Shown here: one piece after another, positions 2-14,657 of the stretch
Layout: every line of letters begins with the position of its first letter
Position numbering within the stretch: the stretch's first letter is position 1
Assembly (NCBI GenBank): GCA_001789645.1
Contig: MGAG01000003.1
Span: 7,843-71,842, forward strand
Origin: Candidatus Roizmanbacteria bacterium RIFCSPLOWO2_01_FULL_37_12
GTDB lineage: Bacteria; Patescibacteriota; Microgenomatia; UBA1406; GWC2-37-13
Length of the DNA: 64,000 nucleotides
Direction of reading: 5' to 3'
The notes under the pieces: generated by a model
The model's database searches: none
The model's input: only the letters and a program-made list of their open reading frames with translations
Told to the model about the DNA's origin: nothing
Translations under genes and position numbers: made by a program

Positions 2-724
2 ACATCAATCATCAGTTCTGTAGGTAATGATCATTATGGGCAATTCATTAAACAAACTTTTATCAAAAATAATATTAACATACAAAATCTTAGGGAAGAC
101 TCATCTGAAAGCTCAGTACATTTTGTCGTGATAGCCAAAAAAACCCAATCAAGAACAATATTTAAAAAAAAGAATCATCTTAAAGTTTTAGCAGAGTTTT
201 CCCCATTTCATAAATTTACGATTCAAAACTCTAAAATATTAGTTCTCGACCGGAATGTAGATAACGAGCAAATAAAAGCTATAAATTGGGCAAAAAAACA
301 TAAAGTAAAAGTGGCATATGACCCTTCGGATAAATATAATTCATTTACACTTAAAATGATCCAATTGGCGGATATTTTTATCGCTCCTCTCGGATTTATC
401 AATCATTTAAAAAATAAATCTAACCCCGAACACGCTTTGAAAGAACTGTGGATGCTTAATAAAAAAATAGTTGTCTTAACTTTGGGTCCCAAAGGTTCAA
501 TGGCAACCGATGGAAAATCAATAGTTTACGAACCACGAATCAATCAGGTACGTGTAGTTGACACTAATGGAGCAGGGGATGTATACTATGGCGCATTTGT
601 TTACGGGGTTTTAAAAAATTGGAATCTTAAGAAAAAATTAACTTTTGCCAATAAAATCGCGGCGTTAAAATGTTCAATACTGGGAAATGATTTTAAAAAA
701 CTGAATTTGAAAAAATATAGATAA
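2..724 (+). CDS. PfkB-family carbohydrate kinase (5' end cut by window edge)
   Basis: Reading frame is open from nt 2 (..SSVGNDHYGQFIKQ..) into listed ORF 128..724. C-terminal DTNGAGDVYYGAF matches the PfkB signature DTxGAGD. Stop TAA shares its last A with the next ATG. Confidence 0.8.
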   Translation, partial: TSIISSVGNDHYGQFIKQTFIKNNINIQNLREDSSESSVHFVVIAKKTQSRTIFKKKNHLKVLAEFSPFHKFTIQNSKILVLDRNVDNEQIKAINWAKKHKVKVAYDPSDKYNSFTLKMIQLADIFIAPLGFINHLKNKSNPEHALKELWMLNKKIVVLTLGPKGSMATDGKSIVYEPRINQVRVVDTNGAGDVYYGAFVYGVLKNWNLKKKLTFANKIAALKCSILGNDFKKLNLKKYR

Positions 725-2547
725 TGTCAAAAAAAATTAAAGTTTCCGATCTGGTAATTAAATTTCTTGAAGATCTGGGTCTTACCCATATTTTTCTAAT
801 TTCCGGAGGCGGAAATATTCATCTCATCGACTCTGTAGGTAAAGCTAAAAAATTAAAATACGTCTGCAATCATCACGAACAGGCCTGCTCGACAGCCGCT
901 GAGGGATATGCCAGAATTCACGGATTGGGAGCTTGCCTGGTAACCACAGGACCGGGCGGCACAAACGCCATAACCGGAGTGCTCGGTGCTTATCAGGACT
1001 CGATTCCAGTAATCGTAATCTCCGGCCAGGTCAGAAGAAATACAATCGGAGCAGGGAAGTTTGCCAGACAGTTCGGCGACCAGGAGGTAAACATCGTCGA
1101 TATTGTCGAACCTCTGACAAAATATGCGGTAACAGTTACTGAACCTGACGAAATCCTTTACCACCTGCAAAAAGCCGCTTATCTGGCAAAAAACGGCAGA
1201 CCTGGTCCGGTTTGGATTGATATTCCGCTCGATGTCCAGGGATGGTTTATCTTTCAGAAAGATTTAAAAAAATTTAATCCAAAAGAAATAAAACCGGGTT
1301 ATCAAACAGAAAAAAAACTTATCAAAAAACTTGTCGGCAATACTTTAGATAAATTAAAAAACTCAAAAAGACCAGTTTTGTATGTGGGGAATGGAATAAG
1401 ACTTGCCGGAGCTGAAAAAGAATTGCTTAAACTTGTAAATCTTCTTAAAATTCCGGTTCTTACCAGTTATGCAGGTTACGATCTTCTTCCCTCTGATCAT
1501 CCGTATTTTTTTGGCAGGGGACACGCCTTTGGTCAAAGAGCGGCTAACTTTATTCTGCAAAACAGCGACCTGCTTATATCGATCGGGGCCAGATTTGATA
1601 TCCGAACCATTGGGTTTACTTACAAAGCTTTTGCTAGAAATGCCTACAAGATTATGGTTGATATTGACATACAAGAAATTAAAAAACCGATTTTATCAGT
1701 TGACTTACCGGTTAATTTTGACGCAAAACAATTTATTGCAGAAATGTTAAAACAGTTAAATAAAAATTCTTTACGCTTAAAAATTGCTGACTGGCTTAAA
1801 TACGGTAGAGATCTAAATAAAGAGTATCCTATTGTCTTGAAAGGCTATTGGAAAGAAAAAAAAGCAGTTAACCCGTATTGTTTTATTGAAACTGTCGGAA
1901 AATATCTTAAACCAAATGAATTAATTGTGGTTTCCGATGGGGTAGGACCATTAAACTGCATGTATCAGGCTTTTCATGTAAAATCCGGACAGAGAATTAT
2001 TCTTAATAACGGTACCGCCCAGATGGGTTATGGGCTACCGGCAGCAATCGGAGTTGCATTTGCCGCCAATAAAAAGAAAAGAATTATCTGTTTTGAAGGA
2101 GACGGAAGTCTGCAACTGAATCTTCACGAATTGGGAATAATGGCTCACTATAAACTACCGATTAAGTTGTTCTTATATAATAACGGCGGCTATTTATCTA
2201 TCATGAATACCCAGAGAGGGCTTTTCGGCGGAAAATTTGTCGGCTCTAACACGGAATCCGGCGTTCCGACTGTAGATTTTATTAAACTTGCGAAAGTTTA
2301 TGGTTTTAAAACAGTGAAAATCAAAAATCATTCCGATATGGTAAAAGGAATTAAAAAAGTCTTAAAAACTCCCGGTCCGGTTTTTTGCGAGATCAATTCA
2401 ACCAGGGATACAGTTCTTACCCCGAAACTTATGGCGCAAAAACTCCCCAACGGCCAATTTGTCTCACCACCCCTGGAAGATATGGGTCCCTTTTTGCCGA
2501 GAGATGAATTCAAAAAAAACATGTTAATTCCTCTATGGAAAGACTAA
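724..2547 (+). CDS. Thiamine-diphosphate-dependent enzyme, acetolactate-synthase large-subunit-like
   Basis: 607 aa. N-terminal GGGNIHLID..TTGPGGTNAITGV, and C-terminal GDGSLQLNLHELG...YNNGGY (ThDP/Mg GDG-X-NN motif). Size and layout match ALS/YerE-type enzymes. Confidence 0.85.
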   Translation: MSKKIKVSDLVIKFLEDLGLTHIFLISGGGNIHLIDSVGKAKKLKYVCNHHEQACSTAAEGYARIHGLGACLVTTGPGGTNAITGVLGAYQDSIPVIVISGQVRRNTIGAGKFARQFGDQEVNIVDIVEPLTKYAVTVTEPDEILYHLQKAAYLAKNGRPGPVWIDIPLDVQGWFIFQKDLKKFNPKEIKPGYQTEKKLIKKLVGNTLDKLKNSKRPVLYVGNGIRLAGAEKELLKLVNLLKIPVLTSYAGYDLLPSDHPYFFGRGHAFGQRAANFILQNSDLLISIGARFDIRTIGFTYKAFARNAYKIMVDIDIQEIKKPILSVDLPVNFDAKQFIAEMLKQLNKNSLRLKIADWLKYGRDLNKEYPIVLKGYWKEKKAVNPYCFIETVGKYLKPNELIVVSDGVGPLNCMYQAFHVKSGQRIILNNGTAQMGYGLPAAIGVAFAANKKKRIICFEGDGSLQLNLHELGIMAHYKLPIKLFLYNNGGYLSIMNTQRGLFGGKFVGSNTESGVPTVDFIKLAKVYGFKTVKIKNHSDMVKGIKKVLKTPGPVFCEINSTRDTVLTPKLMAQKLPNGQFVSPPLEDMGPFLPRDEFKKNMLIPLWKD

Positions 2548-3470
2548 AAGTCAAAAAAATATTCATCACTGGAAGTTCCGGATTTATTGGCAGAAATCTA
2601 AAGGAATATTTGCAGAAAAAATTTACGGTTTTTGCTCCATCCCATAAGCAACTTAATCTTCTTGATGCGGATAAAGTCAGAATTTATATTCTTAAAAATA
2701 AAATTAATGTTATTTTACATTGCGCACTGATCGGGGGTGGAAAAGAAGATCTGGAAATCAAAGATATAGTCTACTCTAATTTAAGAATATTTTTTAATAT
2801 CACCAGAAATTCGAAATTAGTAGACAAAATCATCCATTTTGGATCGGGTCTTGAGTACGACAAAAACAGACCTTTAAAATCCGTGAAAGAAGAAGATTTT
2901 GATAAAAAAATTCCAATGGATGAATACGGTTTTTATAAATATGTTTGCGCAAAATATTCTGAAAACTCCCAAAATATTTATGATCTGGTAATATTTGGAA
3001 TTTACGGTAAATACGAAGACTATCTTTATCGTTTTATTTCCAATTCAATCATCAAAAATCTGTTAAAAATGCCCATCGTAATAAATCAAAATGTCGTTTT
3101 TGATTATCTTTATATTAATGACCTGGTTAAAATTGTCGGGTATTTTATTTCTCACAAACCAAAATATAAAATTTTTAATTTGACTTCAGGAAAAAAAATA
3201 GATCTTCTTTCAATTGCAAAACTGATCAATTCGGTTGGCGAATTCAAATCCGAAATAAAAATCTTAAACAAAGGCTTGAATAATGAATACACCGCCAGTA
3301 ATAACAGATTGTTAAAAGAATTAACCGGATTTAAATTCACTCCGCACAGAGATACGATAAAAGAATTGTATAATTGGTATAAGAATCGGATGCATTTAAA
3401 TGAAAATAATAAAATCAAACAGGATTCGCATATCAAATTTTTAAATATCCATAAAAGTTTATATAAGTAA
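2535..3470 (+). CDS. NAD(P)-dependent sugar epimerase/reductase (extended SDR)
   Basis: N-terminal ITGSSGFIGRNL Rossmann motif and a YxxxK-type centre (YVCAK). 13-nt overlap with the upstream gene. Confidence 0.7.
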   Translation: MERLKVKKIFITGSSGFIGRNLKEYLQKKFTVFAPSHKQLNLLDADKVRIYILKNKINVILHCALIGGGKEDLEIKDIVYSNLRIFFNITRNSKLVDKIIHFGSGLEYDKNRPLKSVKEEDFDKKIPMDEYGFYKYVCAKYSENSQNIYDLVIFGIYGKYEDYLYRFISNSIIKNLLKMPIVINQNVVFDYLYINDLVKIVGYFISHKPKYKIFNLTSGKKIDLLSIAKLINSVGEFKSEIKILNKGLNNEYTASNNRLLKELTGFKFTPHRDTIKELYNWYKNRMHLNENNKIKQDSHIKFLNIHKSLYK

Positions 3471-3474
3471 TATT

Positions 3475-3540
3475 GTCATCCTGAACTCGGTTCAGGATCT
3501 GATTTGTGAAAAACAGATGCTGAAATAAATTCAGCATGAC
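3475..3540 (+). repeat. Family-A double-hairpin miniature element, copy A1 (66 bp)
   Basis: GTCATCCTGAACTCGGTTCAGGATC, a 16-nt spacer, then GATGCTGAAATAAATTCAGCATGAC. Both hairpins and the ATAT 3' flank closely match A6 (one mismatch in the left hairpin loop); the 16-nt spacers differ. Confidence 0.9.
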
Positions 3541-4222
3541 ATATAAGTTTATGAAAAAATCAAAAACTGTATTTTTAACCGGCGCCTCCCGCGGAATCGG
3601 TAAAGCTATCTTTAAAAAACTAAATAAACAAGGGTACAAAATAATTACTCCCTCAAGAAAAGAACTTGATCTCAGTGATCCGACTTCAATTAAACGTTTA
3701 ACTGAAGTGAACAAAAAATTAAAAGTCGACATTCTTATAAATAACGCCGGAATTAATCTACCCCAATGGATCGATGAACTTGAGGATAAAAACTTGGAAG
3801 AAACTCTTCGAATAAATCTAATTAGTCCAATTAGTCTAATCCGTGCTTTTGTCCCTTACATGAAACAACAAAAGTGGGGGAGAATAGTAAATATCTCATC
3901 GATGTTCGGAGTTGTTGCCAGGGGGAAACAAACACCTTACGTTGCCAGTAAACACGGTCTGAACGGCGTAACAAAAACCCTGGCTTTGGAATTAGGACCG
4001 TATAATATTCTGGTTAATTCAGTCTGTCCGGGATTTGTTAAAACCGACCTGGTATTGAGGAATCCTCCGGAAAAGCTTGCAGCTTTAGCCAAAGATGTTC
4101 CGCTTGGCCGACTGGCTGAACCCGAAGAAATCGCCGAACTTGTTTCTTACTTGATTTCCGACAAAAACTCATATATCACAGGAACCAACATCTTAATTGA
4201 CGGAGGATATACGTGCAGATAA
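3536..4222 (+). CDS. Classical short-chain dehydrogenase/reductase (FabG-like)
   Basis: TGASRGIGKA, NNAG and YVASKHG (YxxxK). The ATG at 3536 lies inside repeat element A1, so the real start may be the MKKSK ATG at 3551. Confidence 0.85.
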   Translation: MTYKFMKKSKTVFLTGASRGIGKAIFKKLNKQGYKIITPSRKELDLSDPTSIKRLTEVNKKLKVDILINNAGINLPQWIDELEDKNLEETLRINLISPISLIRAFVPYMKQQKWGRIVNISSMFGVVARGKQTPYVASKHGLNGVTKTLALELGPYNILVNSVCPGFVKTDLVLRNPPEKLAALAKDVPLGRLAEPEEIAELVSYLISDKNSYITGTNILIDGGYTCR

Positions 4223-4229
4223 TTCTTGT

Positions 4230-4302
4230 GTCATCCCCGATCTAATCGGGGATCCAGTCTGGATTTCCCTAAAGGGACTATAGCCCGCCTTCGTGGGAAT
4301 GA
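4230..4302 (+). repeat. Family-A variant element, copy A2
   Basis: GTCATCCCCGATCTAATCGGGGATC, then TCCCTAAAGGGA and CCCGCCTTCGTGGGAATGA hairpins. Confidence 0.7.
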
Positions 4303-4314
4303 AAAATGTAATTT

Positions 4315-5415
4315 ATGAAAGACCTTAAAATTAAAACCGTATTAAAAGAATATTCTGTTAAATTTGTCAACGACTTTACATTTGTAGACAACTTTTTAAA
4401 ACTGCCTTATTATAAAGTAGTCGTAGGAGAAAATGTCTATAAGATTTATAAAAAAAAGATCTTTGATAAATTTCCCAAAGATAAACTAATCATTATAAAA
4501 TTTGACGAAGAAAGAAAAACTTTAGAAACTGCCGCTTTGATCTACGAAAAATTTTTAGACCTCGAAGGCAAAAAAAATGCGACCCTTATTTCTTTTGGCG
4601 GCGGCATTAACCAGGATGTTACCGGTTTCGTAGCTTCAACACTTTATCGGGGTATAAACTGGATTCTTGTCTCAACCACACTTTTGGGAATGGCAGACAG
4701 CTCAATCGGTTTAAAAACTTCACTTAATTTTAAGTCTTACAAAAATGTACTGGGCAGTTTTTATCCCCCATCGGAGATTTATATTAACGTTAATTTTTTG
4801 GATTCTTTACCAAACGAATATTATTGGAGCGGGGTAGGGGAAATAGTTAAATTCTATCTGATGCGAAAAAATCCCTTAAAAACTTTAAAAGATTCAGTCA
4901 GAAAAATCAATATATTAAGCCAAAGAAAAAATAAAAATAAAATAACTAAAATCATTAAGGAAAGCCTGAAGATAAAGCTGGATTATATGTTGGGGGATGA
5001 ATTTGATCAGGGAAAAAGAAACCTTTTAAATTACGGACATGAGTTAGGCCATGCTTTGGAATCCTGCTCAAATTTCGACATCCCGCATGGAATTGCCGTA
5101 ATTATCGGGATTATTTTTGCTAATTTAGCCGCTCTAAACCGCCGGTTAATCACGCGTAAAACTTTCGATTACCTGAACAGTCAGTTACTTTTTCCCTGTA
5201 TTCTAAATAGCCGGATTAAATTGAGAAAAGTATTTTTTGCTTATGATTTTATTTTGGGGAAATATAAAAAAGATAAAAAAAGAGTTTCGTACAACTTACC
5301 CTTAGTCTATCCCGCTAAAAACTTCAGCTTGACAAAGACAACCGACTTTTCAGTGGACGAATTTAAGAATAACTATAGGGAATTTATTAGTCTAATAAGT
5401 CCTTATCTGATCTGA
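4315..5415 (+). CDS. 3-dehydroquinate-synthase-like sugar-phosphate cyclase family protein
   Basis: FGGGINQDVTGFVASTLYRGINWILVSTTLLGMADSSIGLKTSLN resembles the DHQS nucleotide/metal region (GGGxxxDxxGFxA..RG..PTTLLA.VDSSVGGKT). A later YGHELGHALE provides His ligands. Confidence 0.7.
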   Translation: MKDLKIKTVLKEYSVKFVNDFTFVDNFLKLPYYKVVVGENVYKIYKKKIFDKFPKDKLIIIKFDEERKTLETAALIYEKFLDLEGKKNATLISFGGGINQDVTGFVASTLYRGINWILVSTTLLGMADSSIGLKTSLNFKSYKNVLGSFYPPSEIYINVNFLDSLPNEYYWSGVGEIVKFYLMRKNPLKTLKDSVRKINILSQRKNKNKITKIIKESLKIKLDYMLGDEFDQGKRNLLNYGHELGHALESCSNFDIPHGIAVIIGIIFANLAALNRRLITRKTFDYLNSQLLFPCILNSRIKLRKVFFAYDFILGKYKKDKKRVSYNLPLVYPAKNFSLTKTTDFSVDEFKNNYREFISLISPYLI

Positions 5416-5490
5416 TTTACATCCTTTCTATAGCTTTATTTATATTGACTTCAGCAAACTATTCTGCAAAAATGCAAACTATCAACTCCA

Positions 5491-6291
5491 ATGAACACCA
5501 TCGAGCACAAAATGGTTGAACTCCTTAAAGATCTGAAGAAACACTATTCAGTAGTTGCCATAAAAGCCGAATTTGAGGCGGAAGGGTCGCGTCTTCACGA
5601 ACTCATGCGCCTCAAAGACGTTTCCGATCAAGCCGGACTGGGCATTGTCCTAAAGCTTGGGGGCGCCGAAGCAGTTACCGACCTGTTTGAGGCACAAAAG
5701 ATTGGTATTGAAGGCATCGTTGCCCCGATGATTGAAAGTGCCTACGCCCTTAAAAAATATATTGCCATGGTTGAAAATTATGTCAGTAAATCCGAAAGAG
5801 AAGAAATGCGGATAGTTGCAATGATTGAAACAAACCAAGGATATAAAAACGTGGACGCAATTTTAGCCGTTGATCAGACTAACACTGTCAATACAATTAG
5901 TGTCGGCAGGGTAGATTTTTCCGGGTCACTTGGATTAAAAAGAAATGAAATAAACTCTGATAAGGTTTATAAAATAGTTGAAGATATATTCAGCAAAGCC
6001 AAAAAGAAAAAACTAAACACTGTCATGGGGGGAGGCATAGCAAAAGAAGCAATTCCTTTTATTAAAAAGCTTATAACTAAAAAATTACTGGATCGCTATG
6101 AGACAAGAAAAATAGTCTTCTCGACCAGTGAATCCTCAAGCGCGGAAAGCATGGAAGAAGGCATAATTAAGGCAAACCTCTTTGAACTTTTATGGCTGCA
6201 GAACAAAAAAAGATATTATACTAATATCTATCTTGAAGATGACAACCGGATTGAGATGTTGATGTCCCGCATCTACAAGATAAATCTGTGA
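5491..6291 (+). CDS. HpcH/HpaI aldolase / citrate-lyase-beta-like TIM-barrel protein
   Basis: GIVAPMIESAYALKKY, RIVAMIETNQG and VGRVDFSGSLGL resemble the conserved strands of the HpcH/PEP-utilising TIM-barrel family. No closer assignment is possible by eye. Confidence 0.5.
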   Translation: MNTIEHKMVELLKDLKKHYSVVAIKAEFEAEGSRLHELMRLKDVSDQAGLGIVLKLGGAEAVTDLFEAQKIGIEGIVAPMIESAYALKKYIAMVENYVSKSEREEMRIVAMIETNQGYKNVDAILAVDQTNTVNTISVGRVDFSGSLGLKRNEINSDKVYKIVEDIFSKAKKKKLNTVMGGGIAKEAIPFIKKLITKKLLDRYETRKIVFSTSESSSAESMEEGIIKANLFELLWLQNKKRYYTNIYLEDDNRIEMLMSRIYKINL

Positions 6292-7253
6292 GAAAAAAAA
6301 TACTTTCGATTGTTGTTCCAACTTACAACGAAGAAGAAAATGTCGAGTATGCCTACAGGGAAATAAGGAAAATGCTTGCAGCTATACCCGTATATGATTA
6401 TGAAATTATTTTTGTTGACAATTATAGTTCGGATCGATCCCGGGAAATAATAAAAAAAATCACACGCAAGGACAATAAAGTTACTGCGATTTTTTTATCC
6501 CGAAATTTTACTTCTGAATATTCCTCCCACGCGGCAATGAAACAAGCTATCGGTGACATTCTCACCATCGTTGACTGCGATCTTCAGGATCATCCCTCTG
6601 TTATTCCAAAATTTATTAAACAGTGGGAAAAGGGAAATCTGATTGTTGTCGGAATAAGGAATATAATCAACGACACCTTCTTAATGAAAACCGTCAGAAA
6701 AACTTTTTATATTATTTTAAAAAAATTGGCCAACATTGATATGCCTCTCAACGCCGGCACATTCTGCTTAATTGACCGTAAAGTCCTGGACGTTATTATT
6801 GCTTTGCCCGAACGTAATCGCTTTTTTCGCGGGCTGCGCGCCTGGACAGGCTTCAAAACAGCTTATATCGAATATGAACGGAGAAAAAGAAAATTCGGTA
6901 AGACAAAAAATAGTCTTCTTGATTATATTCGGGATGCCCAAAGAGGAATTTTAGGATTTTCCTTTGTTCCACTGGATATTATGACGACTTTTGGCTTTAT
7001 ATCCGTTATTATTTCTTTCTTATTTTTACTGGGGTATCTTTTTATAGTTATATTTTTTGGAAATCCTTTAAGAGCCCAGATTCCGCTGATGTTAGCAATC
7101 GTTTTTTTCGGCGGTATTCAAATGCTTTCGATCAGTATCGTTGGAAAATATATTCAGATAATCTTTGAAGAAGTAAAAGGCAGACCGCCATATGTAATTG
7201 AAAATATTCTTAACGATCATAGAACTAAAAAATTAATTAAAATTTACAAATGA
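6288..7253 (+). CDS. GT2 glycosyltransferase, polyprenol-phosphate sugar synthase type (DPM1/ArnC/GtrB-like) with C-terminal TM helices
   Basis: LSIVVPTYNEEENV, FVDNYSSD and DCDLQD motifs. Two hydrophobic helices lie near the C-terminus. GTG start overlaps the upstream stop (GTGA). Confidence 0.85.
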   Translation: MRKKILSIVVPTYNEEENVEYAYREIRKMLAAIPVYDYEIIFVDNYSSDRSREIIKKITRKDNKVTAIFLSRNFTSEYSSHAAMKQAIGDILTIVDCDLQDHPSVIPKFIKQWEKGNLIVVGIRNIINDTFLMKTVRKTFYIILKKLANIDMPLNAGTFCLIDRKVLDVIIALPERNRFFRGLRAWTGFKTAYIEYERRKRKFGKTKNSLLDYIRDAQRGILGFSFVPLDIMTTFGFISVIISFLFLLGYLFIVIFFGNPLRAQIPLMLAIVFFGGIQMLSISIVGKYIQIIFEEVKGRPPYVIENILNDHRTKKLIKIYK

Positions 7254-7255
7254 CT

Positions 7256-7295
7256 CATTCGACAAGCTCAGAGTCATATTGAGTGCAATCGAAAT
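7256..7295. repeat. Family-B nested-palindrome element (degenerate copy B1)
   Basis: CATTCGACAAGCTCAGAGTC...CAATCGAAAT, immediately before the aminotransferase ATG. Confidence 0.5.
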
Positions 7296-8462
7296 ATGAA
7301 GTTTCCTTTAATCCAAGAGGACGAAATATTTAAACTTAAAGCCGAATTTGAATCGGATCGCAGACAGCATAAAATAAACGGAGGAATCGGTGTGTATCTC
7401 GAAAATAAAGGTACACCCTATATTTTACCGACGGTTAAAAAAACAGCTAATCGTCTTAAATTTAATAATTTTAATTATCTACCCTTATCCGGCGACCCGG
7501 CTTTCTTGGAGCAAACCGCAAAACTTGCATTAGGCAATTCTCTTTTCAAGGAAAATAACCGGTATATTGCCAAACAAGGAACAATCGGAGGGACAAATGC
7601 AATCTATATGTGGGCCAGATTTATCAAGGAAGTCGATAAAAAACCAAAGATTATCATAGCAAATCCTACCTGGGAAAATCATATCAGAATGTTTGAGTAT
7701 TTCGGATTTTCCGTAATCCGCTATCCGCATTTTACAAAAGAGAAGCAATTTAATTTCGCCGCTCTTAAAGAAATCCTGCTTAAAAATCCTGAAGCCTATG
7801 TTCTATACCAGGGTGGCCCTACGCATAATCCTTCCGGTATAAACCCCGATAATAATCAATGGAAAGTTTTAGCTGAAATTAGCAGTGAGAAAAAACAAAG
7901 CATTTTATTCGATTACGCTTATCTGGGATTGGGAAACGATATCGTCTCCGATAGTTTTTGCATACGTCATTTTATCGGGAAAAGAATTCCAACTTCATTC
8001 GCCGTCTCTTACTCAAAAAATATGACGCTTTATCAACACAGAACCGGCGCCTTATTTATTACCCTAAATTCTAATCAAGAAAAAGAGATCGCCGAAAAAA
8101 TATTACAGAATACTTTTAGATTGGTTAATTCAAACCCGGCCGCCTTCGGTGAACAAATAGTAAAAACAATATTGTCCAGCAAGGAATTGTCGGATAATTG
8201 GAAAATTGATCTGTCCTATATGCTCGCGGATCTCAACAAGAGGCGCGGTATTTTTATAAAAGAATCAGCCGGTAAATTTGACTTTCTTAAAGAGTGTCGC
8301 GGTCTGTTTGGAATGCTTTTTCTTACACCCGGCCAAATTAGCAGACTAAGAGAAAAATATGCAATCTATATTCTTTCCAATAGTCGAATTAATTTCGGGG
8401 GGATATCAATTAAAAATATAGCAAAAGTTGCAAAAGCAGTTTTAAAGTTAAAGTTAACCTAA
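7296..8462 (+). CDS. Class-I aspartate/aromatic aminotransferase (AspC/TyrB type)
   Basis: INGGIGVY, YLPLSGDP, NPTWENH, GGPTHNPSGINP and SYSKNMTLYQHRTGAL (PLP-lysine region SxSKNxGLYxxRxG). Confidence 0.85.
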   Translation: MKFPLIQEDEIFKLKAEFESDRRQHKINGGIGVYLENKGTPYILPTVKKTANRLKFNNFNYLPLSGDPAFLEQTAKLALGNSLFKENNRYIAKQGTIGGTNAIYMWARFIKEVDKKPKIIIANPTWENHIRMFEYFGFSVIRYPHFTKEKQFNFAALKEILLKNPEAYVLYQGGPTHNPSGINPDNNQWKVLAEISSEKKQSILFDYAYLGLGNDIVSDSFCIRHFIGKRIPTSFAVSYSKNMTLYQHRTGALFITLNSNQEKEIAEKILQNTFRLVNSNPAAFGEQIVKTILSSKELSDNWKIDLSYMLADLNKRRGIFIKESAGKFDFLKECRGLFGMLFLTPGQISRLREKYAIYILSNSRINFGGISIKNIAKVAKAVLKLKLT

Positions 8463-9956
8463 ACTCTTACGGATTAATCCGCCACGGGTGATAAGATTGC
8501 TCAATTTCTTCTTACTCATTAATCGTTCTCTGACTTTATTGGCTAAATCATGATGCTCCAGATGTAAACTGTTCTTTGGACCTAATTCTATAGAAAAAGT
8601 TTCTTCCAGTACATTTATGTCATCTTTAATTTCTTCCATAACCTTAATCTTTTTGGCCAATTTTTCGATATTTGCTTTATTCAAAAAATAACCTGCTCTG
8701 ATTAAATCATTTTTTAAATTTTTATACATGTGTGAAACTTCAGGCCATAATCTCTGTTTTTGAGCAGCACGGATACCTCTTCCGGTTGCAATAATTTCGG
8801 GGGGAATACCCAAAGAGTACAATAAACCGGTAAAAGTAATAGCTCGGGGAAGTTTAACCGATCCGACCGATCGGGAATAACCGAATAGTCCGATTTGCTG
8901 CATTCGTTCACGCCTGTTAGGAAATTCAGGGGCTAATTTATTTATCATTGGCGCAAGCTTCTCAACCGTTTTTTTATAAGAATATTCAAACAAAGGAATT
9001 ATTTTTTGTATGGCTGTGACTTCCTTATTATTGAGGGTCTCGGCTTTAGTTTTCTGCAGTTTAGTTTTGAGCAGTTTAATTGCCTGTTTCACCTTGCTTT
9101 TTGGGTAGTCATATCGGAAACCGCTCTGAATAACTAAGGTTGAGGCTCCGGAATATTCCTTAATAGTTTGACTGATCAGATCGGGAGTCACGCCGCCTCT
9201 GAAGGGCAGGCTTCCGGTTCCTAATATTGGATAAAGCTTGATTTCTTCATTCTCCTGAATCCTAGAAATATCCGAAAGGGCTACTTTTATCGCCAACATG
9301 GTCGGCACCAATCCCGAATTAAGCGCAGGATCACTCCTTGCCAAAAACGGACGCAGGTATGATGGTTTTTTCCCAAATACTTTTTTATGTAAAGTAATAT
9401 ATTTCTTAATCATCTGACCGGTGTTCATAATTTTGTCTACTTGCTCGACTAGAGGAATTAATTCAATTTGTTGAATCGAATCTTTCATCTTGAGGAGCGG
9501 ATGATTATTATTGACTAACTGTCTGAATGCTTCCTGAATATTTATTAATTCTTCGGCAGACTCGGTAAGCGGCAGGATCATCTCAAAAATCGGGTAATCC
9601 TCGAATCCCAAATTTTGCATTAACTGACTGTTGGTTATCGCCACCATAAACGCACGGGCCAGTCTGAATTGTTTCTCAACCCTTGGATTAGGAATACGGA
9701 AAGTAAGAAATTTTTCTTTCCCTAACGGGTATCTGGAAAAATAGTTATAGTAATCATGCAGTAACTTGTCGACCACCGCCTCATCAACAAACTTTCCCTC
9801 CCAATCCCAGATATATTCATCGATACCAAGATCTGAAAAACAAATGAAACTTTCTTTAATTTCGTCGGAATTGGAAATAAATGAGTTTTTACTCCAGAAA
9901 GGAACGGAGGCATTATCCGGATGTTGGGACGCCATCGACGAAGGAATCTTTCTCAT
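8454..9956 (-). CDS. ppcA: Archaeal-type phosphoenolpyruvate carboxylase
   Basis: 500 aa. N-terminal IPSSMASQHPDN matches the characteristic ..MSTQHPDN start of atPEPC. The size is about half of bacterial Ppc. Confidence 0.75.
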   Translation of the reverse strand: MRKIPSSMASQHPDNASVPFWSKNSFISNSDEIKESFICFSDLGIDEYIWDWEGKFVDEAVVDKLLHDYYNYFSRYPLGKEKFLTFRIPNPRVEKQFRLARAFMVAITNSQLMQNLGFEDYPIFEMILPLTESAEELINIQEAFRQLVNNNHPLLKMKDSIQQIELIPLVEQVDKIMNTGQMIKKYITLHKKVFGKKPSYLRPFLARSDPALNSGLVPTMLAIKVALSDISRIQENEEIKLYPILGTGSLPFRGGVTPDLISQTIKEYSGASTLVIQSGFRYDYPKSKVKQAIKLLKTKLQKTKAETLNNKEVTAIQKIIPLFEYSYKKTVEKLAPMINKLAPEFPNRRERMQQIGLFGYSRSVGSVKLPRAITFTGLLYSLGIPPEIIATGRGIRAAQKQRLWPEVSHMYKNLKNDLIRAGYFLNKANIEKLAKKIKVMEEIKDDINVLEETFSIELGPKNSLHLEHHDLANKVRERLMSKKKLSNLITRGGLIRKSLG

Positions 9957-10912
9957 TCTAAAATATTTTCATACCATTTTTTTATTTTAATGATTTCTTT
10001 TTTTATTCCGTATCTTGGATTCCAACCCAAAGTCTTTTTGACTTTGGAAAAATCCAGCGATTGAAAAGGAATTTCATTTTTAGCCGTATTCAGAATTCTG
10101 TATTTAACTTTCTTTTTTAAAACTTTTTCACATATTTTAATTACTTCAACTACACTCAGCGTCTCGTCGGATCCGAAGTTAAAAGCCTGCCCTTTTGCTG
10201 CTTCAATGTTATTAGCTAACAAGAGATAACCGCTAACAACGTCTTTTACATATAAATAATCCCTGACATACTTACCGTTGCTCCTGATTTCTAACTCCTG
10301 GCTACTGACTACTGATTTCATAATTCCCGGAATAATTCTTGAGAAATTAAGATCACCTTCGCCGTAAATATTTCCAAAACGAGTAGTTACAACTGGTAAT
10401 TTATAGGTTTTAAAATAGGAAGTCACAATTAAATCGGCAGCCGATTTTGAAACTTCATATGGATGATCTCCTCTCAAGGGGTCTGTTTCTTTATACTTTT
10501 CATTTAATCCTTTACCATAGGCTTTATCTGACGATGCCACAATGACTGCCTTAACCTTGGGATATAACCTAGCTGTTTCTAATATGTTTACCGTGCCCAT
10601 AATATTGGTTGATAGAGTTCTTTTTGGATTATAATAGGCGCTTTCAACTAAGGCTTGTGCTCCTAAATGAAAAATGATTTCAATATTATTTTTAACAATC
10701 AGGTCATAAATTTTTTCAAAATCTTCGATATCGACAAGCGCCATTTTTACTTTTTTATGCAATCCCCGTGTAAAAAAATATGATCGGGGAGAGTTCGATA
10801 TAAAAGTAGTTACCACATTAGCCTTCTGTTTTACCAACTCTTCCGCCAGATGTGACCCGACAAAACCAGTCCCGCCTGTTACTAAAATATTTTTATCTAT
10901 AAAATTATTCAT
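9953..10912 (-). CDS. NDP-hexose 4,6-dehydratase, CDP-glucose 4,6-dehydratase-like
   Basis: VTGGTGFVGSHL, FHLGAQALV, SSDKAYG, HPYEVSKSAAD and RFGNIYGEGD parallel RfbG motifs. It lies directly downstream of rfbF. ATGA overlap with ppcA. Confidence 0.65.
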   Translation of the reverse strand: MNNFIDKNILVTGGTGFVGSHLAEELVKQKANVVTTFISNSPRSYFFTRGLHKKVKMALVDIEDFEKIYDLIVKNNIEIIFHLGAQALVESAYYNPKRTLSTNIMGTVNILETARLYPKVKAVIVASSDKAYGKGLNEKYKETDPLRGDHPYEVSKSAADLIVTSYFKTYKLPVVTTRFGNIYGEGDLNFSRIIPGIMKSVVSSQELEIRSNGKYVRDYLYVKDVVSGYLLLANNIEAAKGQAFNFGSDETLSVVEVIKICEKVLKKKVKYRILNTAKNEIPFQSLDFSKVKKTLGWNPRYGIKKEIIKIKKWYENILE

Positions 10913-10921
10913 AAGCTTTTT

Positions 10922-11007
10922 GTCATCCTGAACTTGTTTCAGGATCTGGTTTTACTGGGATCCCGAAATAAATTCGGGATGACTCGCAATTAATGTTAAT
11001 GCGAGTC
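10922..11007 (+). repeat. Family-A element, copy A3, with an extra third hairpin
   Basis: GTCATCCTGAACTTGTTTCAGGATC ... GATCCCGAAATAAATTCGGGATGAC, followed by GACTCGCA-attaatgttaa-TGCGAGTC, which overlaps the rfbF stop. Confidence 0.85.
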
Positions 11008-11785
11008 ACTTCCACACCTTCCATGGTGCAATTCCAGTAGCCCAAATTTTATTTAAATCCTCATACTCTTTATGGGTATCAACTGCGTACCAGAAACCGG
11101 TATGTTTATAGAGCGAAAGCTGGTTTATTTTTGCTAGTCTTTTCAAAGCTTCATGTTCCAACTCGCCCGGTTTTTGATATTCAAAAAACCGCTTATCGAA
11201 TATCATATATCCCCCGTTTACCCAATCACTCATAATAGGTTTTTCACTGAATTCACTTACCATATTATCCTCCTTAATTTTGACTATTCCGAATTTGAAT
11301 TTCGGGTGTATGCCGGTAATAGTACCGATTTTTTTTTGCTTTTTATGAAACTTTACCAAAGCCGATACATCGATATCCGCCACACCGTCTCCATAGGTAA
11401 CCATAAAATATTTATCTTTATCTGGAATGTAATTTCGGCACAACAGTATTCTTTCACCCGGCTGCGTTTCTAAACCGGTATCGACAAAGGTTATTTTAAA
11501 ATCGTCAATTTCTGATCTGTTTTCAAGAAAGAATTTTGTTTTATGATTTCTTGTATTTAAAGTGAAGTCCGAAGTAAATGCTTTTTGATTTAAAAAAAAA
11601 TCTTTGATGTAATCACCTTTATATCCCAATGCCAAGATAAATTCATTATATCCGTACGAGGCATAGATCTTCATGATGTGCCAGACGATGGGTTTATTGC
11701 CGATGTAGACCATTGGTTTCGGCTTGAACTCGGTTTCCTCTTTCATCCTCGTCCCTATTCCGCCACAAAGGATTATTACTTTCAT
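11006..11785 (-). CDS. rfbF: Glucose-1-phosphate cytidylyltransferase
   Basis: MKVIILCGGIGTRMKEETEFKPKPMVYIGNKPIVWHIMKIYASYG is the canonical RfbF N-terminus. 259 aa. Confidence 0.9.
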   Translation of the reverse strand: MKVIILCGGIGTRMKEETEFKPKPMVYIGNKPIVWHIMKIYASYGYNEFILALGYKGDYIKDFFLNQKAFTSDFTLNTRNHKTKFFLENRSEIDDFKITFVDTGLETQPGERILLCRNYIPDKDKYFMVTYGDGVADIDVSALVKFHKKQKKIGTITGIHPKFKFGIVKIKEDNMVSEFSEKPIMSDWVNGGYMIFDKRFFEYQKPGELEHEALKRLAKINQLSLYKHTGFWYAVDTHKEYEDLNKIWATGIAPWKVWK

Positions 11786-11796
11786 ACCCAGTTATT

Positions 11797-13752
11797 TTAC
11801 AATATCTCTCTGATTTTTTTCACTATGGCCTCGCTATCGATCTCCTCGTAGCGCAAAAGATCTTGAGGAGATCCGGACCGGGGAATTTTTCTCACACAGA
11901 GGTGATGAACCGATACTTTAGTATTAACAAAAACCTCTCTCACGGCATCTCCCAATCCGCCATAGGGATAATGATCTTCAACTATAATAAATTGTTTATT
12001 GTTAATTGCTAATTGTTTTATTGTTATAGAGTCTATTGGTTTTATACTGTAGGCATCGACTATACAAATTTTTAGATTTTCTTTGGCTAACAAATCATAT
12101 GCCTTTAAAGCTTCATGCACCACAACTCCCGCCGCAATAATTACGGCACTATCCTCCTCGCTCTGCCTTAATATTTTTGACCCTCCGATACTGAATTCTT
12201 CATCTGCCGGGTAAATGACGGGAACCGAATCTCGCATGGTACGCAAATAACTTATACCTGTCTGTTTCGCCATCAGCATTGTAAGTTTAAAAGCCGATAC
12301 GGCATCACTGGGATGAAGCACTACGCTGTTTAAAATACTTCTCATTAAGCCGATATCTTCTAACCCCTCTTGTGAGGGGCCGTCCGGTCCGACAAAAACT
12401 CCGGCGTGGGAACAAACTATTTTTAGATTGCCTTCTGAATATTGCGCAATTCGGATTTGATCAAAGGCCCTACTTAAAAAGGCGGAAAAAGTTGAGACAA
12501 ATGGTATAAACCCAATTTTAGACAAACCCAAAGCGGTCGATATCATATTCTGCTCGGCGATAAACATCTCAAAAAATCTCTCGGGAAAAATATTTTTAAA
12601 TTTTTCGGTTAAGGTAGAATTGGAAACCTCTGCATCCAGAACAACCAGAACCGGATTTATTTTCCCAATCTCCACCAAAGCATCGCCATATGCTTCACGA
12701 GTCGAAACTAGTTCATCTAATGTGTAATTTGCTATTAACTGTTGATTGTTATTTTTAATTTTTGATATGTTATTTTGATATTTGATATTTAATGTTTGAT
12801 ATTGGGGAGCTATAATCTTACCTCTTATGTTCAAATCAACCTCTCCCAACTCTTTCAACACTACATCCAGTTGATATTTGGTTAGTGCCTTCCCATGCCA
12901 CCCCTCCGCATTCTCTAAAAACGAAACTCCCTTACCTTTCACCGTCTTTGCAATTATCATCATTGGCTTTCCATCCAAGTCTGAATTCGATTGACCTTGA
13001 CTGATTTCAACTGATTTAAACGCTTCATACACTTTATATATATCGTGTCCGTCGTCAACAACAATCGTTTGCCATCCGAAAGAAGAAATCCGGCGCTCGT
13101 AAGTCTCTAAATCCCACCCCAACATCGTTTCTCCACGTTGACCTAACCTGTTAACGTCTAATATCCCTATCAGATTTTTTAACTTGTAGTAAGATGCTAT
13201 TTGTAATCCCTCCCAGATTTGACCCTCTGACATTTCGGAATCACCCAACAAAACCCATATTTTCGGAGTTCTTTCAATTTTTAATTTTTCATCCATTCGA
13301 CTTTGCTCAGGATGACCCTGAGTTTTATCGAATGGGTCATTTTTAATTTTTAATTTAATTCCCAGTGCCATTCCCAATCCGATTGACATTCCCTGGCCTA
13401 AAGATCCGGTCGCGACATCCGCATAAGGAAATCTAGGCATAGGGTGTCCTTCCAATCTCGAACCGAATTTTCTTAGAGTCATTATTTCTTCATATGAAAT
13501 TATTCCCGCTGCCTGGTACAAAGAATAAAGCAGGGGAGCGGCATGACCTTTAGAAAAAACTACCCTGTCATTCGTAATATTTTTTGGATTATCGCTATCG
13601 AATCGTAAAAACCCGGCAAAAAATAAAACCGCCATCAGTTCAACCGCCGAAAGACTGGATGAAGTATGCCCCGAACCGGCCGCATTCGTCGAAGTTAAAA
13701 TATCGTACCTGACTAATCGGCAAATCTTTTCCAATATTTCTCTGTTTGGCAT
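11797..13752 (-). CDS. tkt: Transketolase (single fused polypeptide, with two repeat-derived inserts)
   Basis: GSGHTSSSLS, GHPMPRFPY..ATGSLGQG and LLGDSEMSEGQIWE (ThDP motif) in the N-half. The C-half has FIAEQNM pyrimidine-binding and C-terminal domains. Confidence 0.9.
   Translation of the reverse strand: MPNREILEKICRLVRYDILTSTNAAGSGHTSSSLSAVELMAVLFFAGFLRFDSDNPKNITNDRVVFSKGHAAPLLYSLYQAAGIISYEEIMTLRKFGSRLEGHPMPRFPYADVATGSLGQGMSIGLGMALGIKLKIKNDPFDKTQGHPEQSRMDEKLKIERTPKIWVLLGDSEMSEGQIWEGLQIASYYKLKNLIGILDVNRLGQRGETMLGWDLETYERRISSFGWQTIVVDDGHDIYKVYEAFKSVEISQGQSNSDLDGKPMMIIAKTVKGKGVSFLENAEGWHGKALTKYQLDVVLKELGEVDLNIRGKIIAPQYQTLNIKYQNNISKIKNNNQQLIANYTLDELVSTREAYGDALVEIGKINPVLVVLDAEVSNSTLTEKFKNIFPERFFEMFIAEQNMISTALGLSKIGFIPFVSTFSAFLSRAFDQIRIAQYSEGNLKIVCSHAGVFVGPDGPSQEGLEDIGLMRSILNSVVLHPSDAVSAFKLTMLMAKQTGISYLRTMRDSVPVIYPADEEFSIGGSKILRQSEEDSAVIIAAGVVVHEALKAYDLLAKENLKICIVDAYSIKPIDSITIKQLAINNKQFIIVEDHYPYGGLGDAVREVFVNTKVSVHHLCVRKIPRSGSPQDLLRYEEIDSEAIVKKIREIL
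12761..12801. repeat. Heptamer block (TTTGATA-type) inside the transketolase inter-domain linker
   Basis: TTTGATA at 12761, then TTTGATA TTTGATA TTTAATG TTTGATA at 12774..12801. It encodes ..LNIKYQNNISKIKNN.. Confidence 0.8.
13293..13335. repeat. Family-B nested palindrome, copy B2, in frame inside transketolase
   Basis: CCATTCGA-ctttg-CTCAGG-atgac-CCTGAG-tttta-TCGAATGG. It encodes ..NDPFDKTQGHPEQSRMDE.. Confidence 0.85.
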
Positions 13753-13778
13753 ATTAGTTAAGTATATAATACATAAAT

Positions 13779-14657
13779 ATGTCTAATAAAACGAAGGCTA
13801 TTCTTGCTATTTTATTTGCATCCATATTTGGTGGAGCGGCATCGACTGTTATTAAAATAGCAATCAGACAAATCCCCCCCTTCAGCTTTTCGTTTATTAG
13901 ATTTCTAATTGCTTCAATTTTCTTACTTCCTCTATTTTTTAAGCATAAACCAAAATTTGACAAAGATTTTCGCCATCTTCTTTTAATCTCATTGCTGCCA
14001 ACTTTGAATATAGGCTTATTTGTCATCGGTCTTAAAACAACTACCGCCTCCATCGCGCAGATGCTTTATGCAGGAACTCCACTCATTGTTGGTGTTTTAA
14101 GTTATTTTTTATTCGGATTTAGCATGAAATTGAAGAGATGGTTTTTTATATCGATCGGGCTTTTTGGAGTTTCGCTAGTTATATTTCTTCCTTTGATTCA
14201 GAAAAATGCTGCCCATACAGGAGATTTAGGGGGAAATTTATTAATTGCTCTTGGGGTCATATGTTGGTCTATTTATGCTGTATACTCTAAAGAGCTGCAA
14301 AAAAAATACTCGCCTTTAATTATTACGTCTGTGTTTTTCTTTGTCTCTACCGTGATATTTTTCTTTTTGTCTTTCTTGGAATATTCGCCAAAAAACATAT
14401 GGTGGATAAACTTAAAACTGTCTTCAATAATTGGACTCTTGTATGCCTCAATTTTTGCGACTGTTGGCTCATATATGCTAAACCAATACTCATTCAAATT
14501 TGCCAATCCTGTACTTGGCTCACTCAATCTTTATCTGATTCCAATATTTGCCTATTTTAGCGCTTACGTTTTATTAGGAGAAAAGTTAACAATCGGTTTA
14601 ATCTCAGGAACAATTCTTGTCTTCTTAAGTATAACGCTAGCTACTTATTTCAAATAA
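13779..14657 (+). CDS. EamA/DMT-family transporter
   Basis: 292 aa with about 10 hydrophobic helices in a duplicated 5+5 layout typical of EamA. Confidence 0.75.
   Translation: MSNKTKAILAILFASIFGGAASTVIKIAIRQIPPFSFSFIRFLIASIFLLPLFFKHKPKFDKDFRHLLLISLLPTLNIGLFVIGLKTTTASIAQMLYAGTPLIVGVLSYFLFGFSMKLKRWFFISIGLFGVSLVIFLPLIQKNAAHTGDLGGNLLIALGVICWSIYAVYSKELQKKYSPLIITSVFFFVSTVIFFFLSFLEYSPKNIWWINLKLSSIIGLLYASIFATVGSYMLNQYSFKFANPVLGSLNLYLIPIFAYFSAYVLLGEKLTIGLISGTILVFLSITLATYFK

Follow-up and report, generated by a model that had tools for sequence, protein, structure and literature searches.

In the scheme that Steitz et al. (2022) put forward for acyl-branched sugars, which has been partly demonstrated, an aldolase-made 2-keto acid is coupled by a YerE-like enzyme to CDP-4-keto-3,6-dideoxyglucose, followed by YerF-like reduction (PMC9306805). 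Two Mycobacterium marinum genes, MMAR_2331 and MMAR_2332, were assigned to caryophyllose in that study, and the glycosyltransferase family 2 (GT2) gene MMAR_2333 was required for caryophyllose addition in this organism (PMC9306805). The branch of caryophyllose is a 1,3,4,5-tetrahydroxyhexyl group (PMC5706390). MMAR_2329 is annotated in a supplementary table as a 3-dehydroquinate synthase family protein, and its neighbours comprise MMAR_2327 (GT87), MMAR_2331 (aldolase/citrate lyase), MMAR_2332 (thiamine diphosphate (ThDP) enzyme), MMAR_2333 (GT2), MMAR_2334 (RfbF), MMAR_2335 (RfbH) and MMAR_2336 (CDP-glucose 4,6-dehydratase) (PMC12395582). Here we analyse a stretch of 64,000 nucleotides (the window; G000:C3:7843-71842) from Candidatus Roizmanbacteria bacterium RIFCSPLOWO2_01_FULL_37_12. 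The assembly of 1.34 Mb in 41 contigs is approximately 91% complete, and its proteins have Candidatus Roizmanbacteria, Levybacteria and Gottesmanbacteria, all Microgenomates of the candidate phyla radiation (CPR), as closest named relatives. By gene content, an operon at the start of the window very probably encodes, in a CPR form, the pathway to an acyl-branched 3,6-dideoxyhexose of the caryophyllose type. The original prediction for this DNA held that the operon matched no nameable cluster, a statement that had to be given up, given that the gene set agrees with the published scheme (PMC9306805) and, judged by annotation and gene order, with the caryophyllose genes of M. marinum. Clusters of this kind are thus known; a CPR member is new, and the only undescribed step is that of a dehydroquinate synthase (DHQS)-like protein.

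Gene layout was taken from the open reading frame (ORF) listing and families were assigned by Pfam and NCBIfam profile scans. These reproduced the seven packed plus-strand genes predicted at 2..7253, with a 1-nt TAATG overlap at 724, a 13-nt overlap at 2535-2547 and a 4-nt GTGA overlap at 6288-6291. The first gene, for a PfkB kinase (2..724, +; Pfam PfkB 126 bits on the full protein), extends beyond the window at its 5' end. The whole gene, C3:7655-8566, encodes 303 aa and starts 188 nt upstream of the window; according to gene callers the start lies 27 nt later, 161 nt upstream of the window, giving 294 aa. It is followed by a ThDP enzyme of 607 aa with all three TPP domains in Pfam (724..2547, +), an extended short-chain dehydrogenase/reductase (ext-SDR) with Pfam Epimerase and RmlD_sub_bind matches (2535..3470, +), and a classical, FabG-like SDR (3536..4222, +; Pfam adh_short_C2 171 bits). 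The DHQS-family paralogue of 366 aa (4315..5415, +; Pfam DHQ_synthase and DHQS_C) comes next, and the operon ends with a divergent HpcH/HpaI-fold protein (5491..6291, +; Pfam HpcH_HpaI 49.7 bits, cut-off 25) and a GT2 of the polyprenol-phosphate sugar synthase type, PgfS/ArnC/GtrB-like (6288..7253, +; Glycos_transf_2 101 bits).

Comparison of the ThDP enzyme with YerE, proposed earlier, turned out to be apt: the protein scored 445.6 bits against PDB 8rph and 263 bits against the best acetolactate synthase (ALS), and in the NCBIfam scan it stayed under all ALS cut-offs. It also has the GDG motif and the HEQ glutamate. The 8rph sequence carries a CDG variant of the ThDP motif. This variant has been described for JanthE, a YerE-like enzyme (PMC12247030), and we identify 8rph as JanthE because of it. 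By its sequence, the enzyme of the operon is therefore a YerE-like carboligase and not an acetolactate synthase. A reading of the PfkB and ThDP genes as IolC-like and IolD-like parts of inositol catabolism was dropped because of this likeness and the glycan-synthesis context. The ext-SDR gene overlaps the ThDP gene by those 13 nt at 2535-2547 and adjoins it in every homologous locus, which makes its product, by position, a candidate for a YerF-like role in reducing the C1' ketone of the branch.

The genes for the sugar-nucleotide arm flank the operon. RfbH (E1 3-dehydrase), the DegT-family gene just upstream of the window and divergent from the PfkB gene, scores 630 bits, above the equivalog cut-off of 423. 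On the other side, the minus strand carries genes for a CDP-glucose 4,6-dehydratase-like enzyme (RfbG; 9953..10912) and a glucose-1-phosphate cytidylyltransferase (RfbF; 11006..11785), followed by a fused transketolase (11797..13752, -; NF004559 790 bits, above cut-off). Profile scans of 9953..13752 thus agree with the transketolase and CDP-hexose genes that had been recognised nearby, and the hint that the latter matter was well placed: they belong to the same pathway, as does the divergent upstream RfbH/E1 gene.

The DHQS-like protein was compared with curated models and structures. Its best-scoring curated model in the NCBIfam scan is TIGR04425, with 345.7 bits against a cut-off of 400; with aroB (TIGR01357) it reaches 229 bits against a cut-off of 305, i.e., less than an equivalog score. 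Among PDB structures AroB is best (131 bits), ahead of DOIS (2d2x; 109.7 bits), EEVS (4p53; 84.7 bits) and DDGS (5tpr; 80.1 bits). In an alignment with five AroB sequences, all 13 of the AroB active-site residues checked are kept (R130, D146, K152, N162, E194, K197, K250, R264, N268, H271, H275, H287 and K356 in Aspergillus nidulans numbering), a set that covers the phosphate, metal, NAD and carboxylate binders. Residues aligned with K250 and R264, which bind the carboxylate of 3-deoxy-D-arabino-heptulosonate 7-phosphate (DAHP), are present in 240 of 240 family members examined. Since the carboxylate and phosphate binders are both retained, the substrate should, as far as these residues are a guide, be a 3-deoxy-2-ulosonate phosphate rather than sedoheptulose-7-phosphate (S7P) or glucose-6-phosphate (G6P).

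These results bear directly on the cyclase reading of the original prediction, in which an enzyme of the EEVS, DDGS, EVS or DOIS type makes a C7 or C6 cyclitol from S7P or G6P that is then loaded on a lipid carrier. Such a pathway would find S7P sources in the transketolase or transaldolase genes nearby, and a DHQS fold in a genome with no shikimate pathway agrees with it. We nevertheless regard it as very improbable: AroB structures outscore DOIS, EEVS and DDGS, the K250 and R264 equivalents are invariant, and the constantly linked HpcH-like aldolase, together with the YerE-like enzyme, would be left unexplained. In S7P cyclases the carboxylate-binding arginine is replaced. The cyclitol synthase idea was rejected on the PDB scores and the retained carboxylate binders.

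In a maximum-likelihood tree, the cassette DHQS-like proteins form a clade apart from seven bona fide AroBs, two of which come from CPR shikimate operons (branch support 100/97). The DHQS-family gene is the only one in the genome, and genome-wide profile searches for chorismate synthase, shikimate dehydrogenase and DAHP synthase I found none of them; the same searches detected all control genomes that possess these families. The remark that no other shikimate genes are visible therefore extends to the whole genome, and the two grounds on which the cyclitol idea was to be abandoned in favour of AroB, i.e., grouping with bona fide AroB and a full pathway, are both absent. CPR bacteria generally lack amino acid biosynthesis. 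A relative from the same CPR family has, unusually for CPR, a complete shikimate and aromatic amino acid operon (L014, G032:C2:266000-283000, 3473-11983) with genes for DAHP synthase, prephenate dehydratase, CM/PDH, AroB, AroA, AroK, AroE, AroD and AroC, and the pathway is thus recognisable in this lineage when present. The genuine AroB reading was rejected on the genome-wide lack of the pathway and on the tree.

A variant of that reading makes the protein an orphan but true dehydroquinate synthase, fed by the HpcH-like protein as an alternative DAHP synthase and delivering dehydroquinate or quinate to non-glycan metabolism. The complete AroB active site speaks for it, as does the neighbouring aminotransferase, whose best NCBIfam match is an aromatic amino acid transaminase subfamily. 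The genome, however, has no genes leading from dehydroquinase to chorismate, as opposed to the full operon of the relative; the protein lies outside the AroB clade; and the linkage to glycan genes is strict in four phyla, so that this proposal has very little left to recommend it. In a tblastn search of plasmids for named homologues only ordinary AroB or DOIS were found, and one of the matches is a real shikimate operon on a Thermovirga plasmid. Literature searches on TIGR04425, sugar phosphate phospholyases, CPR cyclases and bradyrhizose returned nothing relevant.

What the DHQS-like protein might contribute is suggested by the structure of caryophyllose itself. Its branch corresponds to a decarboxylated 3,7-dideoxyheptulosonate, and the sole difference between this acid and DAHP is a terminal methyl group instead of the phosphate on C7. 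In the pathway that we propose, RfbF, RfbG and RfbH would, by homology, make CDP-4-keto-3,6-dideoxyglucose. The HpcH-fold protein would join pyruvate or oxaloacetate with erythrose-4-phosphate or a free tetrose to give a DAHP-like 3-deoxyheptulosonate, to which PfkB would add the C7 phosphate where the aldehyde is unphosphorylated. The DHQS paralogue would then take the dehydroquinate synthase reaction only halfway, i.e., NAD-dependent oxidation at C5, beta-elimination of phosphate and re-reduction at C5, and the classical SDR would reduce the resulting C6 ketone to yield 3,7-dideoxyheptulosonate with its terminal methyl. This acid would be the ThDP donor from which the YerE-like enzyme attaches an acyl branch at C4 of the CDP-sugar; reduction of the branch C1' ketone by the ext-SDR would leave a 1,3,4,5-tetrahydroxyhexyl branch, as in caryophyllose. 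Finally, GT2 would load the sugar onto polyprenol phosphate and the PMT_2 enzymes of the GT-C type would transfer it outside the membrane. We hold this account as a whole, a caryophyllose-type pathway with a non-cyclising DHQS-like step, to be probable. For the step itself we lean, with a little more reserve, towards a non-cyclising deoxygenase that would turn the terminal phosphate into a methyl group. A search of a literature collection for papers that join caryophyllose and dehydroquinate found none, and the role of the DHQS-family gene in the caryophyllose pathway appears to have been undiscussed so far.

The enol-pyranose intermediate of AroB closes to dehydroquinate spontaneously. A non-cyclising outcome consequently requires a special mechanism, and the fully kept active site is, as a sequence feature, equally compatible with real ring closure. 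The DHQS paralogue could then close the ring after all, with the SDR acting as a quinate-dehydrogenase-like reductase to give a quinate-like acid that ends on the surface as a substituent or a C-linked branch; the conservation of all AroB catalytic residues and the established spontaneity of the cyclisation favour such a course. We consider it unlikely. A cyclised product is no 2-keto acid and cannot serve as ThDP donor, and the conserved core is without a ligase or transferase to attach a carbocyclic acid. Moreover, caryophyllose, whose M. marinum locus holds by annotation the same gene set, has an open-chain 6-deoxy branch that fits a non-cyclised product, and the family departs from AroB at three invariant motifs. 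These are GGGxxQD, DEFD and GH[E/C/D]xGH in 240 of 240 members, compared with GGGxxGD, DExE and GHTxGH in AroB, and all three differences sit near the active site. Together with the obligate SDR partner they are the only hints, drawn from sequence and gene context, of an outcome differing from that of AroB. That the CPR carriers of the cassette and those of other phyla display a quinate-like carbocycle, formed without a shikimate pathway from an aldolase-made DAHP analogue phosphorylated by PfkB, appears slightly less probable still than ring closure as such.

The AF2 model of the HpcH-like protein has a pLDDT of 89, and the top Foldseek matches are SbnG, HpaI, HpcH, YfaU and macrophomate synthase. 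The Glu/Asp metal ligands have conserved counterparts in E113 and D142. From this modelled fold we propose that the protein is a pyruvate- or oxaloacetate-dependent aldolase that would make a 2-keto-3-deoxy acid. PfkB has ribokinase, IolC and KDG kinase as best NCBIfam matches, all far under their cut-offs. Two of these weak matches, IolC and KDG kinase, act on keto-deoxy acids; for this reason, and in parallel with a fused kinase in a relative described below, PfkB may, by analogy, phosphorylate the 3-deoxy-ulosonate at its terminal hydroxyl if the aldehyde partner carries no phosphate.

Neighbouring genes offer candidate sources for both aldolase substrates. Transketolase and transaldolase both yield erythrose-4-phosphate, and transaldolase-family genes occupy the equivalent place of the transketolase in L005, L006 and L009; the fused transketolase of the window is likely to be the erythrose-4-phosphate source. 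Directly downstream of the operon lies an AspC/TyrB-type class I aminotransferase (7296..8462, +; Aminotran_1_2 120 bits; PRK09257 310 bits, cut-off 377), on which an archaeal-type phosphoenolpyruvate carboxylase (PEPC; 8454..9956, -; PEPcase_2 468 bits; TIGR02751 496 bits, above cut-off) converges with a 9-nt overlap. PEPC stands beside the cassette here and in L003, where the aminotransferase-PEPC pair stays linked to the cassette, and inside the operon in L005 and L006 (order RfbF, RfbG, PEPC, transaldolase, DHQS-like, HpcH). An AspC-type aminotransferase follows HpcH-GT2 in four loci (here, L003, L017 and L018). PEPC and AspC-type aminotransferases both make oxaloacetate, and SbnG and macrophomate synthase both use it. 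On the basis of this linkage and of SbnG and macrophomate synthase as near folds, oxaloacetate is a possible, if somewhat doubtful, C3 donor for the HpcH-like aldolase. PEPC and the aminotransferase may supply it, their membership in the pathway being uncertain.

In the GT2 protein, Glycos_transf_2 spans residues 7-168 and two C-terminal hydrophobic helices follow at approximately 224-289; the best models are PgfS (223 bits) and ArnC (132 bits). With this GT-A domain, the two C-terminal transmembrane (TM) helices and GT-C partners nearby, the polyprenol-phosphate type first assigned to the protein is confirmed. PMT_2 (GT-C) genes lie in the window at 18659-20086, 55973-57529 and 60169-61890, and a DUF2079 protein is encoded at 28017-29585. 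In some homologous loci, GtrA and GT87 or PMT_2 adjoin the GT2 gene. The predicted loading of the product on a lipid carrier for GT-C enzymes is thus well supported by context. Just upstream of the window (L002, C3:1-9000, 69-4713) there are three consecutive PMT_2 genes and a further GT2 gene, followed on the other strand by genes for a HAD phosphatase, a GalE-like epimerase and RfbH.

The core genes (ext-SDR, ThDP, HpcH-like, SDR and DHQS-like) stand together on other CPR contigs (L003, L005, L007, L009 and L017) at 51-81% identity, and the block is also found on an actinobacterial contig (L011), in an Elusimicrobia genome (L012) and in an Anaeromyxobacter metagenome-assembled genome (L013). 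It is usually accompanied by RfbF, RfbG, RfbH and GT2, and the same gene order on independent contigs means that the arrangement is not due to chance. The SDR and DHQS-like genes are adjacent in all loci, often overlapping, and overlap or abut in L011-L013. Within the related genomes the cassette is patchy: a DHQS-like gene (>345 bits) occurs in 6 of 61 and an HpcH-like gene in 5 of 61, with the two side by side in G005, G006 and G010. The suggestion that the seven genes be tested for co-conservation thus gave a divided answer. Five of the seven are kept across phyla, and PfkB is confined to a small sub-lineage. None of 60 relatives has a PfkB counterpart, and a search of 5.8 billion clusters yielded a family of 15 proteins with 55-87% identity. 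For four family members the longest contig listed has the same length as one listed for a cyclase homologue, which suggests that they share contigs, and L017 shows the co-location directly, with an order identical to the one here (PfkB, ThDP, ext-SDR, SDR, DHQS-like, HpcH, GT2, aminotransferase). Unannotated proteins of 308-328 aa in L005, L007 and L009 are not PfkB kinases and gave only weak HAD or methyltransferase matches.

In several loci the genes for HpcH, SDR and the DHQS-like protein sit side by side, frequently with overlaps, and away from the ThDP gene. This speaks against a further possibility, that the DHQS paralogue acts after ThDP coupling and eliminates the phosphate on the side chain of the nucleotide sugar, where ring closure is impossible. 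That order of events would avoid the problem of spontaneous cyclisation, and it calls for the same gene content as the pathway proposed above. Yet the invariant carboxylate-binding lysine and arginine point to a free acid as substrate rather than to a bulky CDP-sugar whose side chain has been decarboxylated, and we judge action after coupling to be as improbable as ring closure.

Two natural variants bear on the proposed pathway with its non-cyclising step. In a member of the same genus (L016, G004:C37:22000-40000, 4184-13914), two DHDPS-family aldolase genes replace the HpcH-like gene, one of these class I pyruvate aldolases being fused to an AAA_33 P-loop kinase domain. DHQS-like, SDR, methyltransferase, ThDP and SDR genes follow, and NeuB-family and HAD genes lie upstream. 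The aldolase function can thus come from another family, and a kinase can accompany the aldolase. G045, in turn, keeps HpcH, GT2, aminotransferase, ThDP and ext-SDR without a DHQS-like gene and without the classical SDR, so that these two genes behave as one optional tailoring pair. The contig with HpcH, ThDP and ext-SDR also has a second YerE-like ThDP gene (L018, G045:C32, 13977-19824) next to genes for a class I/II aminotransferase, a HAD hydrolase, aspartate-semialdehyde dehydrogenase and homoserine dehydrogenase, a module that may make 4-hydroxy-2-oxobutanoate from homoserine as a C3-branch donor. In L007 (1792-5521) an ErwJ/ErwI-like pair, made up of an acetaldehyde dehydrogenase and an HMGL-like/DmpG aldolase, lies directly upstream of the cassette together with an extra ThDP gene (592 aa); L007 seems to carry two branched-sugar modules in one CPR locus.

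Within the operon of the window, a double-hairpin dispersed repeat element of 65 nt, without strand, was read from the sequence at 3471..3535, where it separates the ext-SDR and classical SDR genes. It consists of two short hairpins, ATCCTGAAC..GTTCAGGAT and ATGCTGAA..TTCAGCAT, with flanks TGTCAT/ATGACA. The first in-frame ATG of the classical SDR ORF, at 3536, is supplied by the end of this element, and the true start is therefore probably the ATG at 3551.

Besides the chemistry of ring closure, a series of observations weighs against the caryophyllose-type account. It is annotation and gene order, not sequence, that connect the operon with M. marinum, and a homologue search started from an actinobacterial member stopped short of Mycobacterium. 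Steitz et al., in their main text, propose pyruvate and an aldehyde numbered 28, and leave the DHQS-family gene unmentioned (PMC9306805). Scores are low in several places: RfbF (TIGR02623, 269 bits, cut-off 300) and RfbG (TIGR02622, 223 bits, cut-off 278) have these models as their best matches yet remain under the curated cut-offs; GT2, with a PgfS cut-off of 500, is not a PgfS equivalog; and the TIGR04425 cut-off is exceeded in none of the 61 related genomes, the score here likewise lying below it. For the HpcH-like protein the fold match has a TM-score of only approximately 0.55, and the invariant Lys55 of its family aligns, in a weak alignment, with an arginine of PDB 3qz6 that we take to correspond to the catalytic Arg70 of HpaI. 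Some expected partners are also missing: no E3 (AscD/RfbI-type) reductase is encoded in the cluster, the sole candidate in the genome being a 246-aa NAD_binding_1 frame on contig C15, and no GtrA flippase is present in the cluster, with the only genome copy on contig C18. Lastly, PEPC and the aminotransferase may represent ordinary aspartate metabolism that is merely syntenic with the cassette.

To our knowledge, the surface chemistry of CPR/Patescibacteria is almost unknown. The present assignment places rare long-branched surface sugars of the caryophyllose, ropiose and aurantose types in these organisms, and connects a branched sugar with the glycosylation machinery of lipid carriers and GT-C enzymes in which CPR genomes are rich. 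The published acyl-branched-sugar scheme leaves the origin of the terminal methyl of the C6 branch unexplained; if our proposal is true, a dehydroquinate synthase paralogue that removes phosphate and builds no ring fills this gap, which would be a new reaction outcome for a textbook fold. The natural variants, i.e., the aldolase swap with its fused kinase, the PfkB-headed operon and the joint loss of DHQS-like and SDR genes, amount to a ready experimental plan.

How, then, does the locus compare with known systems? With AroB (EC 4.2.3.4; 1DQS, 1XAG) the DHQS-like protein shares the fold, the NAD site, the metal site and every substrate-binding residue, and the first three chemical steps of AroB are, from these residues, probably common to both. 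It differs in belonging to a separate clade, in its sub-cut-off aroB score and in the three altered motifs, and, unlike AroB, it has no shikimate context and is constantly paired with a classical SDR. The predicted outcome, deoxygenation without ring closure, would set it apart further. The family modelled by TIGR04425 ('AroB-related putative sugar phosphate phospholyase (cyclizing)') also consists of AroB paralogues with no part in the shikimate pathway; the protein here scores under the 400-bit cut-off of that model.

Among branched-sugar systems, YerE/YerF (yersiniose A), ErwE/F/I/J (erwiniose) and JanthE resemble the present operon in that a ThDP carboligase adjoins an NAD(P)H reductase and the acceptor comes from RfbF, RfbG and RfbH. 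YerE uses pyruvate and adds a C2 branch, unlike what is proposed here. ErwE uses 4-hydroxy-2-oxopentanoate from a BphI/BphJ-type pair; such a pair lies beside the cassette in L007 and none is found in the window. In contrast to both the YerE and ErwE systems, an HpcH-fold aldolase is here joined to a DHQS paralogue and an SDR. On the transfer side, three-component glycosylation of the GtrA/GtrB/GtrC and PgfS/PgfM types has, as here, a GT2 with a GT-A domain and two C-terminal TM helices and a GT-C nearby; GtrA, however, has no copy in this cluster, and the donor in our case would be a branched sugar linked to CDP. Of the systems described so far, the nearest is the caryophyllose part of the LOS locus in M. 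marinum (MMAR_2327, 2329-2336), whose DHQS family, aldolase/citrate-lyase family, ThDP, GT2, RfbF, RfbH, CDP-glucose 4,6-dehydratase and GT-C genes are all matched by annotation. The logic of M. marinum and of the Steitz scheme, an aldolase-made 2-keto acid, ThDP coupling and then reduction, is common to the operon described here. Unlike in M. marinum, the host belongs to the CPR, PfkB heads the operon, the GT-C partners are PMT_2 rather than GT87 proteins, and a transketolase, an archaeal-type PEPC and an AspC-type aminotransferase are attached; together with PfkB, these three are lineage-specific additions to what is otherwise a shared gene set.

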